Shown here: in pieces, positions 1 to 5,685 of the stretch
How positions within the stretch are numbered: position 1 is the first letter of the stretch
Layout of the letters: each line of letters opens with the position of its first letter
IMG/VR virus record: IMGVR_UViG_3300045988_000092
Location: 1-5,685 of that record
DNA from: a virus
DNA length: 5,685 nucleotides
Direction: 5' to 3' (one strand)
Position numbers and translations under genes: made by a program
Notes under the pieces: generated by a model
Database searches by the model: none
The model's input: only the letters and a program-made list of their open reading frames with translations
Told to the model about the DNA's origin: nothing

Positions 1-55
1 CTTTTAATTTTCGTTTCATCGTTAAAATTTATTACTTTTCAACTTTTCCACAGTC
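1..55. repeat. Terminal redundancy: bases 1..55 are identical to 5631..5685, marking the circularisation junction of a 5630-nt circular genome
   Basis: Direct read: cttttaattttcgtttcatcgttaaaatttattacttttcaacttttccacagtc occurs verbatim at both window ends. Confidence 0.95.
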
Positions 56-86
56 TCTACTACTACGTCTACAACAAGTTAATATT

Positions 87-138
87 ATATCGCGCGTGCG
101 CGCGTGCGCGCTATCGCGCGTGTGCGTACGTGCGATAT
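87..138. repeat. GC-rich alternating purine/pyrimidine (CG/TG)n island with long-range dyad symmetry, flanked by ATAT ... ATAT. It can fold into a stem of about 24 bp with a TATC loop in ssDNA and is Z-DNA-prone in dsDNA
   Basis: 91-111 and 115-138 are strictly alternating Py/Pu. Pairing 87-111 with 116-138 gives a near-continuous stem with a few G-T wobbles. The island sits within an otherwise AT-rich intergenic region. Confidence 0.6.
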
Positions 139-151
139 AAGCATCTACTTG

Positions 152-169
152 ATAGACTGAATAGACTGA
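152..169 (+). repeat. Perfect tandem 9-mer ATAGACTGA x2. In addition, the 10-mer TACTTGATAG occurs twice (146-155 and 206-215), the second copy forming the loop of the post-VP4 hairpin
   Basis: Direct reading of the intergenic sequence. Confidence 0.7.
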
Positions 170-189
170 TACATGGAGCCTTTAGGCGA

Positions 190-225
190 CAAAAGCCCAG
201 TACCTTACTTGATAGGTACTGGGCT
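190..225 (-). terminator. Hairpin 12 nt downstream of the VP4 stop (AGCCCAGTACC / GGTACTGGGCT, 11-bp perfect stem, 10-nt loop) followed by TTTTG in gene sense. It is a candidate end-of-operon terminator or a ssDNA structural element
   Basis: Inverted repeat 194-204 and 215-225 read directly. The T-tract is short (3-4 T), so terminator function is uncertain. Confidence 0.35.
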
Positions 226-236
226 AGGTGACACTG

Positions 237-1256
237 CTAGAGCGTTCCTTTCTTCTTCATCTGTTTTTTTATCACTCTTTCTTTGGTCTTTAAGTCTTCT
301 GCGTAGTCTGCTTTTTCATATTTCAGTTTGTTCTGTTCAATTATTGCCTTTTGCCGGTTGCACTTTATTCTCCATAGTCTTTCCGGATTTTCCTCTTCCA
401 TTTTTTTTTCGTAATAGCGTGGTATCTGTGCTTGTTTTCCGTTGGTACACTGAATATAACCTCGCTCCCAAATTTCTTTTTTGTGTTTTTGATAGTATTC
501 GTCTCCCAATCCTGGCTTTAGACTCATGCATGCAAAAGGTTTTTGCTGTCCTAGGTCGTAGTATGTGTTGGCTTTCTTTCCGTCTATCTCGTACATTTTT
601 TTGGTGACGTATCCTGCAACATATCTATATGTTTCTGGAACTGCTTGTGCTATCTGTATTTGTCCCATGCCCCATAGGTCTGCTAGCCATTTGCTGGTAT
701 AGTATCCGTTGTGATGGATTTTATACAGGTTTTTAATGTCTGTTGGTTTCCATCCATATAGTATCATGTGGTAATGTGGTCTTGCTGTTTGTTCTCCATA
801 CTCTCCTGCCACGAAATAGCGTAATTTGCCCTTGTAAGCCTTTCTGACACGTTTTAAAAATTTTTGAATGTCTGGATACAGCAACGTTTGGACGCTTTCT
901 GGGCGCTTCTCTCCTGGCTTCCAGACGTATTGTACTTTTCGCATGATTTCGCCTGTTTTGAGTATCATTCCTGGTACGTGTTCGTCATCATAAGTTAGCG
1001 TAATAAACCACACTTCTTCTTTTGCATAGTTTCGTGCTTCTAATTCTATACGTGTTGTCCAGTCCTCCCTTTGTCTTATTCTGCATCCGATGCATTTCCC
1101 GCATGGTATTAGCATTACCTTTGGATTATACATCAAATCTTCATATTTTAATTTTTTGGCCGTTAACTCAGATAAGCGGGCGAGTGAATATACCCGCCCG
1201 CTTATTTCTTTATTTTCTGGGTTGTACAGCCTTATTAATGGCTTGTAACAACTCAT
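237..1256 (-). CDS. VP4: Microviridae replication initiation protein (VP4/Rep, HUH rolling-circle endonuclease), 339 aa
   Basis: N-terminal Cys cluster CGKCIGCR. Motif I FITLTYD, motif II HYHMILYG (HUH), motif III YVAGYVTKK (compare phiX174 protein A YVAKYVNKK). SD AGGTGA about 9 nt upstream. ATG overlaps the VP2 TGA (ATGA). Confidence 0.9.
   Translation of the reverse strand: MSCYKPLIRLYNPENKEISGRVYSLARLSELTAKKLKYEDLMYNPKVMLIPCGKCIGCRIRQREDWTTRIELEARNYAKEEVWFITLTYDDEHVPGMILKTGEIMRKVQYVWKPGEKRPESVQTLLYPDIQKFLKRVRKAYKGKLRYFVAGEYGEQTARPHYHMILYGWKPTDIKNLYKIHHNGYYTSKWLADLWGMGQIQIAQAVPETYRYVAGYVTKKMYEIDGKKANTYYDLGQQKPFACMSLKPGLGDEYYQKHKKEIWERGYIQCTNGKQAQIPRYYEKKMEEENPERLWRIKCNRQKAIIEQNKLKYEKADYAEDLKTKERVIKKQMKKKGTL
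1172..1205. other. Perfect 11-bp GC-rich inverted repeat (ATAAGCGGGCG / CGCCCGCTTAT) with a 12-nt AT-rich loop, inside the 5' end of the Rep (VP4) coding region
   Basis: The arms 1172-1182 and 1195-1205 are exact reverse complements. They encode I-S-G-R and L-A-R-L using GC-rich codons (GGG, CGG, GCC, CGC) that are atypical for this AT-rich genome. The loop in gene sense is GGTATATTCACT. Confidence 0.6.
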
Positions 1257-2125
1257 CTTAAGTAATCACCTGGCCTTCTTTTTTCTCCGTAGGATCCTGT
1301 TTTGTTCTGAGGTGCTTGATAGTTGTTCTTTTGGTCGCCCTTTTTTTGGTCGCCCTTTTTTGGTACGTTTTTGTCAATGGCTTCGCTGGTGTCGCTTCCA
1401 ATTTCGGTTAGTGTTTTCTGCAGTCCGTATGGGGTCATTTGTGTACTGCTGAGCATTTGCTGCCAACTTTGTGCTGCATTGAACCAGTCACTTTTGCTCC
1501 AACTGTTGCTTTGGTATGCGTTTGGTACAAATCCTCCACTTCTACTTACTCCTAGTGCGCTGCTGCTTGCAAGTCCCATACTTGCCCCGCTGATTGTTCC
1601 TGCGCTTCCACCTGGTGTGCTCGCTCCACCATTTGAGAATGCCAGTATTGGATTAAGTCCGGCTTTTTTCATATCTTCTACGGCTCTTTGATATGCCGTG
1701 CTAGACATGTGTTCTTGCCATTCACGGTTTGCTAGGGCTTCTGCGCTGTTGTAGTTCATGGCAGTGCTGTTTTCGATGTGGTTGTATACGCCTTGCATAA
1801 TTGACTGTAATGTATTGTAACCCATCTGCTTTAGCATACTTTGGCTGTTGTACTTGGCTTGCATGGCACTTTCTTGCCCTTGATATGCATATGCCTGTTT
1901 TAGCCATTCATCAACCTGTTGTACGTTGGTGCTTGATTGACTTCCGCTTTCGGAATGTCCACCGCCTTGCTGTGTGCTTCCGCCGCTGCTTTGGCTGCTG
2001 CCTGTTTGACCCCATCCTCCAAGAGCGCCTCCGATGTTTTTTGCTGCTCCTGCTATTGTTCCTACTGTGTTTGCCACGTTTCCGGCGATGTTGAGTGCTG
2101 TTAATAGTCCTGTTAAGCCTCCCAT
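1253..2125 (-). CDS. VP2: Microviridae minor capsid / DNA pilot protein (VP2-like), 290 aa
   Basis: Hydrophobic N-terminus followed by a Gly/Ser/Gln-rich region. Conserved gokushovirus VP2 core ...AYQRAVEDMKKAGLNPILAF... It sits directly downstream of the major capsid gene. Confidence 0.8.
   Translation of the reverse strand: MGGLTGLLTALNIAGNVANTVGTIAGAAKNIGGALGGWGQTGSSQSSGGSTQQGGGHSESGSQSSTNVQQVDEWLKQAYAYQGQESAMQAKYNSQSMLKQMGYNTLQSIMQGVYNHIENSTAMNYNSAEALANREWQEHMSSTAYQRAVEDMKKAGLNPILAFSNGGASTPGGSAGTISGASMGLASSSALGVSRSGGFVPNAYQSNSWSKSDWFNAAQSWQQMLSSTQMTPYGLQKTLTEIGSDTSEAIDKNVPKKGDQKKGDQKNNYQAPQNKTGSYGEKRRPGDYLR
1333..1362 (-). repeat. In-frame 15-nt tandem duplication in the VP2 C-terminus, giving KKGDQ-KKGDQ, with 14 of 15 nt identical
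   Basis: ggtcgccc followed by a T run, twice, with a period of 15 nt. Confidence 0.75.
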
Positions 2126-2126
2126 T

Positions 2127-2155
2127 TAAAAAATAGCCCGGGTTTTTCCCGGGCT
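2127..2155 (-). terminator. Intrinsic terminator or attenuator hairpin between VP1 and VP2: AGCCCGGG-AAAAA-CCCGGGCT followed by ATTTTTTAA in gene sense
   Basis: Perfect 8-bp GC-rich inverted repeat (plus 2135-2142 and 2148-2155) with a 5-nt loop, followed in gene sense by a run of six T. It sits directly after the TAA of the highly expressed capsid gene. Confidence 0.5.
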
Positions 2156-2165
2156 TCCTCCTTTC

Positions 2166-3866
2166 TTACAGTTTATACAGCCCCGGTACGCTGTACAGCG
2201 GCATACAACGTGTGGTCTTGTTGGCTACGCGGATTGCTCCGAAGAACTGCGGTTCGTTTTGTACGATGAGTGTTCTCGCGATTTCGGTTTTACCTTCTGT
2301 CATCCATTCCTGCGAGAGTGTCGGCACAGTTTCGTAGTTGTCTGCATAGTGCCAGAAATCTAACGTCCCTGTTGCATTGCTTCGCATTAAGCCACTTACC
2401 CGGTTTGGCTTCATTCGGTAGTCAGCCCAGGCTTCTTGATAGCCGAATGTTTCTTCATCGGATGATAAACCTGTTAGCATGATTTCCTTTTTCTTTACTG
2501 GCTGTTCGCCTATATTCGCGAACTGAGGCACATAGTAGTCAAGTCTATCTCTTCTACTCCAGAATCGTTCAAGTCCCTGCTGGTAAGTGCGATTGTGTCT
2601 TACGCACATTACACCAATGACGAATCCATGTTCTTCAAACGATTTTGTAAAGGAACTTTCGTTGATTGGCGTTACTGACATTGCGCCTGTTTCACCGATG
2701 GGTGTACTGTTTTGGTCTTGCTGCCCAGAAGTCTGTACGATTTGGTTCATATTGACATGATAGCGTCCGCCTCCCAGGTATTCCGGCACCTGTACTGTTT
2801 TGTCACTAATTGTGACATTCCACAGAGCTTGTACCTGTTCACGGTAACGGCTGCCACCTCGTGCCATCGTTTCATAGTACTGCTGTACCGCGATTGCGTT
2901 TCGTAGTTCGTTAATGGTGGTCGCGGTTACGCTTCCAAGGTCTGCGTACATCCACCCTCCATCGCCTGTGCTTCCCGTTGCGCCAAATGTTCCGCTGAAT
3001 TCCATTTGTGCTTTTTCGCCTGGTTTGTTGGTTTCTTTCAGATAGGTGAGACTTCCGGCCTTGTTGCTTGTCTGTGTTGACCCGACTACCATGGTTATTG
3101 ACGTTTTTGGGTCATTGTATTCTCCGTTTGACTCTCCCAGTCTGATTGGTGCGTTTCCTGTTAACGGTACGGTCACGTTCGGTCCACGCTGAGCATAGGG
3201 AAGGCAGCTTGAGAAGTAGTCGTGGAAGCGGTTTACAGGTAAGCATTGTCCGCCCGAGATTGCGTTCTGTATAACTTGTTCAAGACTTCCTTTTTCAAGA
3301 CTTCCTTTTTCTTCTACATCGTTGTAGTTGATATTTTCATCGTCTGTTCTGAATGTTGCTGCGTTCTCTACGTTTTCATCTCTGAAGAATTCATTCCAGA
3401 TTTTTACGTATGCTCGTATCGGCAGTGCGTTTATTTCGAAAGTTTTTTTGATTTTTGTTGGCACTCCCATGTAGTCTAAAATTGTTTTTTCTGACGGCTT
3501 CGGCTTGCTTTCATTTCCTTCAACTCTGATTTGTGGTACACTGTATGCTTTGGTAGGCATCCACGGTTTATCTTCTACTTCACCCATGAAATATTTGAAA
3601 TTGTCCCATAGGATACGGTTCGGACAGTAGAAATAATAGAAATCAATGAACGCGTCATCCATGACCGGGTATTTTGGCGTTGTCATTCGGATGATTGCGC
3701 TGGTATCTACTTGGAAGGTATCGCCTGGCAGTACTTCATCTACGAAGAATGGGATAAGTTTACCGCTATCGAATGTGGTTAAAATCGTTTGGTCTCTGTT
3801 GAATCGTGTTCGGCTTGCTTTCATTTCTGGAATTTGCAGAAAGTGCCGTTCGTTGTTTCTATTCAT
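2166..3866 (-). CDS. VP1: Microviridae major capsid protein (VP1 / F-like), 566 aa
   Basis: N-terminal region ...FDSGKLIPFFVDEVLPGDTF... is the characteristic gokushovirus VP1 signature. The length is typical of Gokushovirinae. SD AAGGGAG 13 nt upstream. ATG overlaps the VP3 TGA. Confidence 0.93.
   Translation of the reverse strand: MNRNNERHFLQIPEMKASRTRFNRDQTILTTFDSGKLIPFFVDEVLPGDTFQVDTSAIIRMTTPKYPVMDDAFIDFYYFYCPNRILWDNFKYFMGEVEDKPWMPTKAYSVPQIRVEGNESKPKPSEKTILDYMGVPTKIKKTFEINALPIRAYVKIWNEFFRDENVENAATFRTDDENINYNDVEEKGSLEKGSLEQVIQNAISGGQCLPVNRFHDYFSSCLPYAQRGPNVTVPLTGNAPIRLGESNGEYNDPKTSITMVVGSTQTSNKAGSLTYLKETNKPGEKAQMEFSGTFGATGSTGDGGWMYADLGSVTATTINELRNAIAVQQYYETMARGGSRYREQVQALWNVTISDKTVQVPEYLGGGRYHVNMNQIVQTSGQQDQNSTPIGETGAMSVTPINESSFTKSFEEHGFVIGVMCVRHNRTYQQGLERFWSRRDRLDYYVPQFANIGEQPVKKKEIMLTGLSSDEETFGYQEAWADYRMKPNRVSGLMRSNATGTLDFWHYADNYETVPTLSQEWMTEGKTEIARTLIVQNEPQFFGAIRVANKTTRCMPLYSVPGLYKL
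3281..3310 (-). repeat. In-frame 15-nt perfect tandem duplication in VP1, giving EKGSL-EKGSL
   Basis: caagacttccttttt occurs twice back to back. Confidence 0.8.
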
Positions 3867-4261
3867 TCTTCTGTTTTACTCCCTTCTACTGGTTCTTTTT
3901 TCTGCTCTTTGTTCAGTTCTTCCAGTTCTTTGAGCTTCATCGCGTTAGCTTGTGCTGTTGCTACCATCTGATGATATTCGTGGATGTTCTGCGGAAAATT
4001 GGTGATGTCTACCTCTGTGCCTTCCATAGCGCCTTGTGACAGGCTTTTCATAAATTCCGGGTCGAAACTTGCTTTTCTCACAATGTTTTTGATATCGCAT
4101 TCATCTGCGTAGCTTTCAATCTCTGCTTGAATGTCGATACTTTCGGTTTCTTGCAGGTATTCTTTGCCTTCTTTGTCTTTTGCCCAGACGTATTGTTTTC
4201 GCTCTGTTTCTCCTGGATTTGAAAAGAAGGGCTCGCGCCCTTCTTCGTATCTCTTATTCAT
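3863..4261 (-). CDS. VP3: Putative internal scaffolding protein (VP3-like), acidic, 132 aa
   Basis: Strongly acidic and Glu-rich. Its size and position are consistent with gokushovirus VP3; it lies immediately upstream of VP1 and is translationally coupled to it (ATGA). SD GGGAGGG 8 nt upstream. The functional call rests on composition and synteny, not on a recognised motif. Confidence 0.6.
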   Translation of the reverse strand: MNKRYEEGREPFFSNPGETERKQYVWAKDKEGKEYLQETESIDIQAEIESYADECDIKNIVRKASFDPEFMKSLSQGAMEGTEVDITNFPQNIHEYHQMVATAQANAMKLKELEELNKEQKKEPVEGSKTEE

Positions 4262-4493
4262 TCGGCTTTCCCTCCCATACTTTTTCAGTATCGTTTGTGA
4301 ACGTGCCTACTTCGTCTTCAAAAACTGCCAGTTTAAAGCCGGTATAGTCCTGGGGGCTCTGGCCGATGAAGGTCGTTTTGTCCTTTTCCATCACGTTGCA
4401 CATGCGTGCGAACGTTGCATTGTTTTTGCTTTCTCCTACCCATGTATAGCATTTTGCTACGTTGTCCCAAATTCCATAATAGTTGTGTTTCAT
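4254..4493 (-). CDS. Hypothetical protein, 79 aa
   Basis: SD GAGGAG about 11 nt upstream of the ATG. Its stop overlaps the VP3 start by 8 nt. It matches no family I recognise. It could be a VP5-like accessory protein, but that is speculation. Confidence 0.55.
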   Translation of the reverse strand: MKHNYYGIWDNVAKCYTWVGESKNNATFARMCNVMEKDKTTFIGQSPQDYTGFKLAVFEDEVGTFTNDTEKVWEGKPNE

Positions 4494-4511
4494 TGTTTTC
4501 TTTCTCCTCTC

Positions 4512-4634
4512 TTACAGTCGGATGCCGCCCCGCATTGGCTTTTGGCTCAAGTTGATTGCTTTGGTTTTTCGTGCTGTTACGTTAAACATACGGCGGTCCT
4601 TTGCGCCGCTCATCTTCTTACGATGTTGTGCCAT
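4512..4634 (-). CDS. Small basic DNA-binding protein (J / VP8-like), 40 aa: MAQHRKKMSGAKDRRMFNVTARKTKAINLSQKPMRGGIRL. It is absent from the supplied ORF track
   Basis: Hand translation of the minus strand. SD GAAGGGAG 8 nt upstream of the ATG at 4634, and a TAA stop at 4512-4514. It is very Arg/Lys-rich and ends in a GG-basic tail, as in the SpV4 and Chlamydia-phage ORF8 proteins and phiX174 J. It fills an otherwise non-coding gap in a tightly packed genome. Confidence 0.6.
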   Translation of the reverse strand: MAQHRKKMSGAKDRRMFNVTARKTKAINLSQKPMRGGIRL

Positions 4635-4845
4635 CGTTGTACTCCCTTCTGATTAGTTCTAGCTCAATATCATTTGCAAATTTTTTTGTTCGCCAGATTT
4701 CCTCCAGCATAATTTTTGCATCTTCTATGTTGTTTAGCTTTCGTAGCATTTTATATCCAGCGTTGATTTCTTTGTATTTTTTTTCAAGGAGGCGTTTTAG
4801 TGATTCTTTGGGCTGGTCTCTTATGCTCCATGTTTTGTGCATCAT
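4618..4845 (-). CDS. Hypothetical protein, 75 aa, Lys/Glu-rich and predicted helical
   Basis: SD AAGGAG 7 nt upstream of the ATGATG start. No recognisable domain. Confidence 0.55.
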   Translation of the reverse strand: MMHKTWSIRDQPKESLKRLLEKKYKEINAGYKMLRKLNNIEDAKIMLEEIWRTKKFANDIELELIRREYNDGTTS

Positions 4846-4848
4846 GGT

Positions 4849-4971
4849 TTACTCCTTTTCTTTTTCGTTGACACTATCGTGCAGCGCATGATAGATTTTG
4901 TCAAGCTTTTCAAGAATTTCCATCATGAGACGGATTGCCTGTTTGACGTCCTTAATGGAAATAAGCGCCAT
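4849..4971 (-). CDS. Possible small ORF, 40 aa: MALISIKDVKQAIRLMMEILEKLDKIYHALHDSVNEKEKE. It is absent from the supplied ORF track
   Basis: Hand translation. SD AAAGGGGG 7 nt upstream of the ATG at 4971. Its TAA stop overlaps the SD of the next gene. It occupies the only gap between the peptidase gene and the 75-aa gene. Confidence 0.4.
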   Translation of the reverse strand: MALISIKDVKQAIRLMMEILEKLDKIYHALHDSVNEKEKE

Positions 4972-4972
4972 G

Positions 4973-5362
4973 TTATACCCCCTTTCTGTATGTTTTGGTA
5001 CGCGTGTCAATGTGTACCCATGTGTCGTACACGATGATGCCGCAGCCAGACGGAATGATTTTATTCAGTTTGTTGGCAATTTCTTTTGCGGTCATGCCTT
5101 CAATTCGGATGTCTGCTGCCATTCCTCGCATGTGATATGAGTACTTTGCACCGCCTACCGCTTTATTCCTTGTCGGTGTCCGGTATCCGCTGTTTATGTA
5201 CACTGGTTTTCCGACTTGGTTTCTGAGGATATCCAGAATAGACACCAAATAGCTGTCGATGAATACGACTTGTGAACCATCTTTGCACGCAAATTCTCGC
5301 ACTTTAAAGTGCTGACCTACTTTTTCGTTTGCGTCTGTGTCCATGATATAGCATTTAATCAT
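4973..5362 (-). CDS. Peptidase M15-family peptidoglycan hydrolase (VanY / L-alanoyl-D-glutamate-peptidase-like), 129 aa; candidate lysis enzyme
   Basis: Zn-binding and catalytic signature SGYRTPTRN...GGAKYSYHMRGMAADI...WVHIDTR (SxHxxGxAxD plus a distal His-x-Asp), preceded by F-K-V-R-E-F-A-C-K-D-G as in M15_3 / T5-endolysin-type domains. SD AAGAGG 9 nt upstream. No signal peptide is visible. Confidence 0.85.
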   Translation of the reverse strand: MIKCYIMDTDANEKVGQHFKVREFACKDGSQVVFIDSYLVSILDILRNQVGKPVYINSGYRTPTRNKAVGGAKYSYHMRGMAADIRIEGMTAKEIANKLNKIIPSGCGIIVYDTWVHIDTRTKTYRKGV

Positions 5363-5387
5363 TGTGGTTTACCTCTTTTCATTTTGG

Positions 5388-5416
5388 ATTTTACCATTTT
5401 TTTTATCGCTTGTCAA
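5388..5416 (-). promoter_or_regulatory. Sigma70-type promoter for the whole minus-strand gene cluster: -35 TTGACA, 17-nt spacer, -10 TAAAAT
   Basis: Minus-strand reading is TTGACA-agcgataaaaaaaatgg-TAAAAT. The -35 is plus 5411-5416 tgtcaa and the -10 is plus 5388-5393 atttta. It lies about 25 nt upstream of the peptidase SD and ATG. Confidence 0.5.
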
Positions 5417-5508
5417 TTGTTTTTTGTTTCGAATGGCGCTTTAGCGCCTTGCCGTATGGAGCGCAGCGGAATGCGGCTTAATCCATTCATTATTAGCGCT
5501 GTGCGCGT

Positions 5509-5621
5509 TTTCAACACTTTCAACACTTTCAACAGGTTTTCCACAAAATGTTGCACAATTGATTTCGTCATTTTGACGAACTTTCAACATTTCAACATTT
5601 TTTCCACAAAGTTTTCAACAG
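5509..5621 (+). repeat. Iteron array of about seven TTTCAAC(A) repeats, including three perfect tandem 9-mers at 5509-5535. Interleaved with these are TTTTCCACA motifs at 5537-5545 and 5600-5608, with a third at 44-52 across the junction; they match the relaxed DnaA-box consensus TTWTNCACA
   Basis: Direct reading gives tttcaacac, tttcaacac, tttcaacag, then ttttccaca, then tttcaacat, ttcaacat, ttttccaca, tttcaacag; ttttcaac and ttttccaca follow in 37-52. Confidence 0.7.
5564..5580. promoter_or_regulatory. Perfect 17-bp palindrome TTCGTCA-TTT-TGACGAA embedded in the iteron array; candidate dimeric protein-binding site
   Basis: The arms 5564-5570 and 5574-5580 are exact reverse complements. Confidence 0.4.
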
Positions 5622-5630
5622 TGTATTTCT

Positions 5631-5685
5631 CTTTTAATTTTCGTTTCATCGTTAAAATTTATTACTTTTCAACTTTTCCACAGTC
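5631..5685. repeat. Second copy of the 55-nt terminal redundancy (equals 1..55)
   Basis: Exact identity with 1..55; an assembly or linearisation artefact of a circular molecule. Confidence 0.95.

Follow-up and report, generated by a model that had tools for sequence, protein, structure and literature searches.

Plasmid and phage theta origins, such as P1 oriR and those of pSC101, F, R6K and RK2, carry one to a few boxes for the host initiator DnaA together with iterons of 17–22 bp, and it is the element's own initiator that opens the duplex. The A site, known from R6K and pBR322, is a hairpin of single-stranded DNA (ssDNA) with a double-stranded DnaA box in its stem. E. coli datA and the DnaA-box clusters of B. 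subtilis are DnaA titration loci, and these are not known to have an adjacent unwinding module of DnaA-trios and AT-rich DNA. In the textbook view, microvirus replication relies on a nickase of the phage and is independent of DnaA; phiX174 has a 30-nt gpA origin and a hairpin for PriA-dependent primosome assembly, and is not known to have DnaA boxes or to need DnaA. A box-trio unwinding device, the basal unwinding system (BUS), has been defined in B. subtilis and occurs throughout bacteria; its parts are two boxes in tandem, a short spacer, three or more DnaA-trios (3′-GAT-5′) and an AT-rich region (PMC8287927). Described here is a putative counterpart of BUS in a microvirus, IMG/VR virus record IMGVR_UViG_3300045988_000092 (positions 1 to 5,685), the whole 5,685-nt stretch of which is referred to as the window.

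The window represents a complete gokushovirus genome, circular and 5630 nt long; positions 1–55 are identical to 5631–5685, an assembly overlap of 55 nt. Every gene lies on the minus strand. The largest intergenic region is 504 nt (5363–5685 plus 56–236) and contains ten predicted DnaA boxes, located between the end of the VP4 gene and a promoter-like site. The array is probably a viral copy of BUS, made up of ten boxes in the dialect of the host, trios and an AT-rich stretch, which would open the double-stranded replicative form (RF). The original prediction, made from the sequence of the window, had recognized the boxes and overlooked the trios and AT-rich stretch just across the junction (window 57–90), which give the region the architecture of a duplex-opening origin. 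It also described the region as the sole intergenic one; gaps of 40, 124 and 127 nt are present as well. The features of the region are:

5496–5507: GCGCTGTGCGCG, right-hand limit of the invertible cassette; on visual inspection it copies part of the CG-rich palindrome, imperfectly and in inverted orientation
5508–5545, plus strand: distal cluster of four predicted DnaA boxes, TTTTCAACA (5508), CTTTCAACA (5517), CTTTCAACA (5526) and TTTTCCACA (5537)
5546–5580: conserved spacer with AAAATGTTGCACAA and a perfect palindrome
5564–5580: that palindrome, TTCGTCA-TTT-TGACGAA, lying between the distal and middle box clusters; 49 of 132 cassettes have it
5581–5620, plus strand: middle cluster of four predicted DnaA boxes, CTTTCAACA (5581), ATTTCAACA (5589), TTTTCCACA (5600) and TTTTCAACA (5612)
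5666–5682, plus strand: tandem box pair beside the trios, TTTTCAACT (5666–5674) and TTTTCCACA (5674–5682); the same as window 36–52
53–56, plus strand: 4-nt spacer GTCT from the proximal box to the trios (53–55 are the same as 5683–5685); 4–5 nt in relatives
57–71, plus strand: DnaA-trios, CTA CTA CTA cgt CTA
72–90, plus strand: CAACAAGTT and the AT-rich stretch AATATTATAT, candidate duplex-opening site
85–140: CG-rich palindrome of 56 nt with alternating purines and pyrimidines, CGCGCGTG repeats and 26-nt arms, adjoining the AT-rich end of the cassette

The repeats were first noticed as two separate motifs, seven copies of TTTCAAC that include three perfect tandem 9-mers, and three TTTTCCACA in the same orientation, 63 and 74 nt apart. 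A motif count and Tandem Repeats Finder bear this out. The seven distinct copies of TTTCAAC are at 5509, 5518, 5527, 5582, 5590, 5613 and 5667 (=37), with the tandem 9-mers at 5509–5534, and TTTTCCACA is found on the plus strand at 5537, 5600 and 5674; the match reported at 44 is the duplicate of that at 5674. On the coding strand the boxes read TGTGGAAAA or TGTTGAAAA. Enrichment, which had been proposed as a check, is clear for the exact motifs, whose counts were reached in none of 200 dinucleotide shuffles. For the relaxed consensus TTWTNCACA alone it is only marginal (four matches including the duplicate vs 0.81 expected; reached in four of 200 shuffles). When pooled as TTTC[AC]AC, the motifs give ten sites, all on the plus strand and within 175 nt, and there are none elsewhere in the genome on either strand. 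The biggest same-strand cluster in 5000 first-order Markov simulations was three.

Relatives of the phage exchange TGTGGAAAA and TGTTGAAAA at homologous positions, and in the middle cluster TTTTCCACA and TTTTCAACA are likewise interchanged. Because of these exchanges TTTTCCACA and TTTCAAC belong to one family, and the two motifs are variants of a single site, TTTTC[A/C]ACA.

Across the junction (window 36–90) the plus strand reads TTTTCAAC-TTTTCCACA-GTCT-CTA CTA CTA cgt CTA-CAACAAGTT-AATATTATAT. In the published definition, BUS has a box with at most two mismatches to the motif of the species, 0–16 bp from the trios (PMC8287927). The TTTTCCACA at 5674–5682 (=44–52) has one mismatch to TTATCCACA and none to TTWTNCACA, and is 4 nt from the first trio. 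The second box of the definition is in tandem, in the same orientation and has at most four mismatches; TTTTCAACT at 5666–5674 has three mismatches to TTATCCACA and differs from the host word TTTTCAACA in the last base only. At least three consecutive trios on the correct strand are called for, and CTA CTA CTA is found at 57–65, with an extra CTA at 69–71. On the coding strand these are 5′-TAG-3′, i.e. 3′-GAT-5′, as in the trio definition (PMC8287927), and the relation of trio strand to box strand is that of six host origins with BUS (the five found by pattern and L319, described below). The AT-rich region is represented by AAGTTAATATTATAT at 76–90, and a counterpart resembling ATATATAATAA is present in all groups of phages. 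The window thus carries every sequence element that defines BUS, though it is no chromosomal oriC; the element does not lie beside dnaA and is instead flanked by the microvirus VP4 and peptidase genes.

Immediately after the trios is CTACAACAA (window 72–80), which is kept in nearly all listed phage groups and is not found in host origins. It is mostly followed by GTT, which is variable. On the coding strand CTACAACAA reads AACTTGTTG, which has the string AACTTG in common with the phiX174 origin.

In B. subtilis the orientation of the proximal pair is essential, and a distal box is helically phased and active in either orientation (PMC6669920). The upstream boxes in the window are 62, 74, 85, 93, 137, 148, 157 and 166 nt from the proximal box; the last four of these distances (137–166 nt) are those of the distal cluster, which is conserved in relatives. 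Among 788 sites in 125 distinct but phylogenetically related cassettes, 97% are no more than 0.2 turn from the in-phase position at 10.5 bp per turn, as against 18% at 10 and 14% at 11. The boxes are therefore predicted to lie on one face of the helix.

Likeness to BUS (B. subtilis incC, DnaA-boxes 6/7; PMC6669920, PMC8287927) extends over the oriented tandem pair, the spacer of about 4 nt, three or more trios and the AT-rich DNA beyond, and the upstream boxes are helically phased in the cassette too. The sequence is near-identical to that of BUS in Oscillospiraceae origins. The cassette differs in being part of a 5.6-kb ssDNA phage and not between dnaA and dnaN, in occurring in either orientation in the genome, and in having the phage-specific CTACAACAA(GTT) extension and a CG-rich palindrome at its flank. 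As in theta origins, a mobile element appears to recruit host DnaA by origin boxes, yet the phage cassette has no such initiator or iterons and seems to copy the chromosomal box-trio opening device itself. The A sites of R6K and pBR322 also provide a DnaA box in a replicon that passes through a single-stranded stage, but they present one box in an ssDNA hairpin stem, whereas the phage has ten unpaired boxes and trios in a duplex-unwinding layout. phiX174 belongs to the same virus family and its gpA is related to the HUH initiator of the window, but it is not known to have DnaA boxes, of which the phage cassette has ten. datA-type loci share the dense box cluster outside the chromosomal origin, to which the cassette adds the trio and AT-rich module. 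The kind of device, a box-trio unwinding system, is known; what is new is its microvirus carrier and its context. Within the library searched, no DnaA boxes, trios or oriC-like elements have been described for Microviridae or Gokushovirinae, in agreement with the original prediction that such repeats are undescribed in gokushoviruses.

The same words occur in bacterial origins. Bacterial genomes, one per species, were scanned for three closely spaced GTTGAAA, and at least 120 loci were found. Most of the matches listed are unrelated simple repeats. Also among them are five phage-like arrays, in which GTTGAAA is interspersed with boxes of the GTGGAAA type and both orientations occur, and all five are between dnaA and dnaN in Oscillospirales-type metagenome-assembled genomes labelled Oscillospiraceae, Ruminococcus or Negativibacillus; Pfam matches confirmed dnaA and dnaN in three of the five. 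The commonest 8-mers in these origin regions are TGTTGAAA (62 occurrences) and GTTGAAAA (49). To remove the selection bias, four further Ruminococcus or Oscillospiraceae origins were fetched through DnaA protein homologs, with no use of the motif. Three of these dnaA–dnaN regions have six to eight TTTCAAC, the fourth has six TTTCCAC and one TTTCAAC, and canonical TTATCCACA is present in none of the four. TTTTC[A/C]ACA is therefore the dominant repeat in nine Oscillospiraceae/Ruminococcus origins, five found by pattern and four by homology. Proteins of microviruses are encoded at none of the 120 bacterial loci among the matches listed, which gives no support for a dif-like integration mimic, and a prophage or integration at the host origin was rejected on the same grounds.

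Host and phage box profiles are alike, with A:C ratios at the variable base of 0.83:0.17 and 0.87:0.13, respectively. The Ruminococcus oriC locus L149 has two copies of a 19-mer of the window, TTTCAACAGGTTTTCCACA (5527–5545). In the dnaA-to-dnaN direction the sequence of host origins is TTTCAACAGTTTCAACA-CCCC-CTACTACTACTA and then AT-rich DNA, and the corresponding string of the window is TTTTCAACTTTTCCACA-GTCT-CTACTACTA-CGT-CTA, again followed by AT-rich DNA. The box-to-trio spacers in host origins are CCCC, TACC or GCCA. These matches strongly support the original assignment of TTTTCCACA to DnaA boxes, and they extend it to the TTTCAAC(A) repeats that had been termed iterons, as the two would form one family that fills the dnaA–dnaN regions of Oscillospiraceae and Ruminococcus.

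The DnaA proteins encoded beside the nine origins (L084, L121, L149, L161, L188 and L317–L320) have RDHST(I/V)VY where B. subtilis DnaA has RDHTTVIH. In E. coli numbering the changes are T435S and H439Y, together with P423V/A in the five hosts for which this residue was read. The changed positions are listed as base-specific contacts (PMC7561715). The protein changes suggest that the box specificity of DnaA has shifted throughout the family (C6 to A), and a lineage-specific DnaA-box dialect, in which TTTTCAACA replaces TTATCCACA, is plausible. Because the box dialect matches, we infer that the host of the phage is a member of Oscillospiraceae/Ruminococcus.

Away from the origin, Oscillospirales genomes (L092, L099, L108, L116, L127, L134, L147, L169, L180, L196 and L200) repeatedly contain a triplet of boxes whose spacing is fixed, GTTGAAAA-N4-GTTGAAA-N2-GTTGAAAA. 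Several triplets are upstream of a small conserved gene (MIKGVNK...), and one, judged by eye, is in an apparent gyrB–gyrA spacer (L116). The triplets possibly represent a DnaA regulon.

Conservation in related microviruses, another of the checks proposed at the outset, was found both near and far. Eighty relatives were fetched through VP4 (83–95% identity), and nearly all have five to ten GTTGAAA, the complement of TTTCAAC, within about 160 nt and in the same spacing pattern. Exact TGTGGAAAA is missing in 35 of the 80, which have TGTTGAAAA at the homologous positions. A strict pattern finds the trio-box module in 71 of 81 loci (the relatives plus the window), with the consensus TTG TAG nnG TAG TAG TAG, 4–5 nt, (T/A)GTGGAAAA GTTGAAA; the trio-proximal box is nGTGGAAAA in most relatives that fit this pattern. 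The region is shared by 36–44 gokushovirus records in GenBank, which derive from faeces (pig, human, monkey and other), and it is unannotated there or labelled ‘hypothetical protein’.

Distant groups were found by scanning viral contigs for a box followed by CTACTACTA. A cassette of about 220 nt is also present in gokushoviruses whose VP1 is 36–55% and whose Rep is 37–56% identical to those of the window. At the DNA level the cassette is 71–81% identical to the window in these groups, as compared with 57–67% for the VP1 and Rep genes.

The cassette is found both ways round with respect to the genes. Most phages have the trios on the coding strand, and the opposite orientation is seen in five close relatives (L018, L067, L071, L077 and L078), in all eight members of a group with about 38% identity and in three members of a group with about 41%. 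Groups in which the whole cassette is inverted relative to the genes include the L204-type and L255-type ones. Boxes, trios, CAACAAGTT and AT-rich stretch flip together as a unit, and the inverted segment is bounded by the CG-rich palindrome (85–140) on the left and GCGCTGTGCGCG (5496–5507) on the right. The breakpoints are in CG-rich sequences (the palindrome and ACGCGCACAGCGC) which, on visual inspection, partly copy each other in inverted orientation. Forward and inverted forms differ in sequence; therefore these are old inversions and not a switching element.

Three longer IMG/VR contigs (L019, L010 and L040) appear to be chimeras. L019 was considered as a relative without the array and was set aside, since by eye it joins a microvirus to tailed-phage-like portal and terminase genes. 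L010 and L040 hold parts of two different microviruses, and L010 has arrays in both orientations, one beside each Rep match.

A mode of action can be proposed. Host ATP-DnaA would bind the boxes on the double-stranded RF, and the upstream clusters would supply the proximal pair, either cooperatively or through looping. DnaA would then oligomerise onto the trio strand and open the adjoining AT-rich DNA, and the phage would use the opening to start or boost RF replication. The opening could allow loading of the host helicase, with theta-type or assisted replication, or it could, alternatively or additionally, offer a single-stranded substrate to the HUH nickase VP4. The phage-specific CTACAACAA(GTT) beside the trios may belong to the step in which the opening is used. 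Action on double-stranded DNA is proposed because of the phased boxes, the trios and the AT-rich architecture. A bolder version, in which a large gut gokushovirus group has captured a complete, working origin-opening module of its host and its RF can be replicated by host DnaA and helicase loading, independently or upstream of the nickase, is conceivable but doubtful.

The copied-BUS interpretation builds on observations of how the module is laid out, that it is conserved, that it does not depend on orientation and that it matches host origins; we infer DnaA binding, unwinding and the link to replication. Several points weigh against it. DnaA binding is read from sequence for the host origins as much as for the phage, and the link between unwinding and phage replication is conjecture. 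To our knowledge, the microviruses studied so far use Rep-initiated rolling-circle replication and need no DnaA. phiMH2K and SpV4 have neither box cluster nor trios, so that the module is not a general gokushovirus requirement. The distant-group loci were chosen by a pattern that requires the motif and give no estimate of prevalence for all microviruses, and the spacing and phasing counts stand for one conserved architecture, not for independent events. The box dialect is the sole basis of the host assignment; the sigma-70-type promoter and strong Shine–Dalgarno sequences of the phage are compatible with the predicted host but not specific to it.

Other explanations have to be set beside this one. 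The boxes might serve as a DnaA sink or sensor, whereby the multicopy RF titrates DnaA and arrests host initiation, or DnaA regulates a phage promoter in response to how far the host has got with its own replication, with no unwinding in either case. There are ten boxes per genome copy and a strong promoter 92 nt from the nearest box, and the same box triplets upstream of Oscillospirales genes (e.g. in the apparent gyrB–gyrA spacer of L116) suggest that DnaA can act as a regulator. However, a sink or sensor leaves unexplained the conserved trios, the fixed 4–5-nt spacer, the AT-rich stretch and their joint inversion, and inversion alters both distance and orientation to the promoter; it is a minor possibility. 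The original prediction favoured an ssDNA origin for the complementary strand, i.e. a DnaA-dependent assembly site for the ABC primosome (an A site) that primes synthesis on the incoming genome. The sites do appear to be DnaA boxes, the packaged-sense (coding) strand bears the 5′-TAG-3′ trio strand, which DnaA binds as ssDNA, in most lineages, and an ssDNA phage whose host is Gram-positive must have some signal for priming. Yet the ten boxes have the same orientation, and neither the predicted fold nor a scan for inverted repeats places a complete box in a stem, as an A site would have it. The only local stems are AAATGTTG/CAACATTT and TTCGTCA/TGACGAA, and the array fold is weak (z = -2.95). 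Furthermore, several lineages have the cassette inverted relative to their genes, which a sequence-specific ssDNA signal is unlikely to survive if the packaged strand stayed the same. Skew at four-fold sites does not bear on that condition, as the coding strand is A-rich in every group regardless of cassette orientation, and in phiMH2K likewise. The adjoining CG-rich hairpin (z = -4.65) is a better candidate for an ssDNA signal, and the A-site proposal is unlikely to be correct.

The repeats could instead be iterons for the phage HUH initiator VP4, i.e. the ‘bind’ locus of a rolling-circle double-strand origin of the pMV158, geminivirus or circovirus type. HUH origins typically have short direct repeats beside a hairpin; here the cassette adjoins a large palindrome, and CTACAACAA(GTT) is specific to the phages. 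Still, the same word, in the same proportions and with the same grammar, is found in host chromosomal origins that encode no VP4. Nor does it co-vary with the initiator as iterons are expected to do, for the repeat word is constant across phages whose Rep proteins are 37–86% identical, and such a role is quite improbable. Plasmid-type theta iterons were rejected as well. These are repeats of 17–22 bp recognized by a Rep of the RepA, pi or TrfA type; the units here are 8–9 nt, and the only proteins encoded are HUH Rep, capsid, scaffold, pilot, ORF5, peptidase and the product of an open reading frame (ORF) of 75 aa. Last, the repeats might be the by-product of a small coding gene (MTKSIVQHFVENLLKVLKVLK..., 5571–5413, minus strand) or a low-complexity tract due to chance. 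In many relatives an ATG-initiated ORF that overlaps the proximal boxes stays open, and a hypothetical protein is annotated there in some GenBank records. There is, however, no excess of variation at the third codon position (0.046, 0.038 and 0.029), frameshifting indels are found downstream in relatives, the ORF is split by the cassette inversion, and six of the ten boxes are outside it. The small ORF was rejected on these counts, and the same three properties place conservation at the DNA level. Chance is excluded by the 5000 simulations mentioned above, and this last explanation, in either form, is hardly credible.

If the copied-BUS interpretation is true, a widespread gut microvirus lineage would have a second replication step, driven by the host initiator, and plasmid-like or episomal persistence in Oscillospiraceae/Ruminococcus cells would be possible. 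From the box dialect it would also be possible to read the hosts of uncultured microviruses. Most of the abundant gut gokushoviruses have no known host, and the TTTTCAACA dialect, together with DnaA proteins having S435/Y439, gives a testable host assignment. The shifted box specificity may matter for automated prediction of origins, and the cassette, of about 220 bp, would be a compact natural substrate for studies of box-trio unwinding.

Genes and the promoter-like site of the window are as follows:

5416–5388, minus strand: strong promoter-like site for the gene block, TTGACA-17-TGgTAAAAT, 11 of 12 matches with TG present, 92 nt from the nearest box
5362–4973, minus strand: peptidase M15
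4845–4618, minus strand: 75-aa ORF with no Pfam match
4493–4254, minus strand: ORF5
4261–3863, minus strand: scaffold protein VP3
3866–2166, minus strand: capsid protein VP1
2125–1253, minus strand: VP2
1256–237, minus strand: HUH initiator VP4 (Pfam REP_ORF2-G2P)

A Shine–Dalgarno sequence, AAAGAGG, precedes the ATG at 5362. A search of the intergenic region found no known RNA family, and no similarity to plasmids was found. With 38% A and 18% T the coding strand is markedly rich in A, and the T–A skew at four-fold sites of VP1 is -0.57. All related groups and phiMH2K share this richness in A; SpV4 does not.

The CG-rich palindrome at 85–140 folds as a strong ssDNA hairpin, and most related groups have an equivalent palindrome of different sequence in the same place. 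It is a candidate single-strand priming signal or a cruciform/Z-DNA element. Each arm of the smaller palindrome at 5564–5580 fits TGNCGAA, the Spo0A-box consensus, and single TGACGAA sites are present in two host origins (L188 and L149). The repeats themselves were rejected as Spo0A boxes, as TGTTGAAA or TGTGGAAA have T or G where TGNCGAA needs C.

A perfect 12-bp hairpin comes right after the VP4 stop codon (window 194–225), with ACTTGATAG in its loop region on the non-coding strand; this 9-mer is found again at 147–155. Distant groups keep the loop motif (CTTGATAG) on other stems, e.g. GTGGGCCTAATC/GATTAGGCCCAC in L203 and a further one in L269. The hairpin tracks the genes in its orientation, and not the cassette, in those groups that were examined. 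The loop resembles CTTGATA, the nick core of phiX174 and pC194, but on the antisense strand. Within the VP4 coding region (1139–1206) there is a sub-threshold Rfam match to Termite-leu (27 bits vs a gathering score of 51), which is probably due to chance and coincides with a palindrome, ATAAGCGGGCGAGT/ACCCGCCCGCTTAT (1172–1205).

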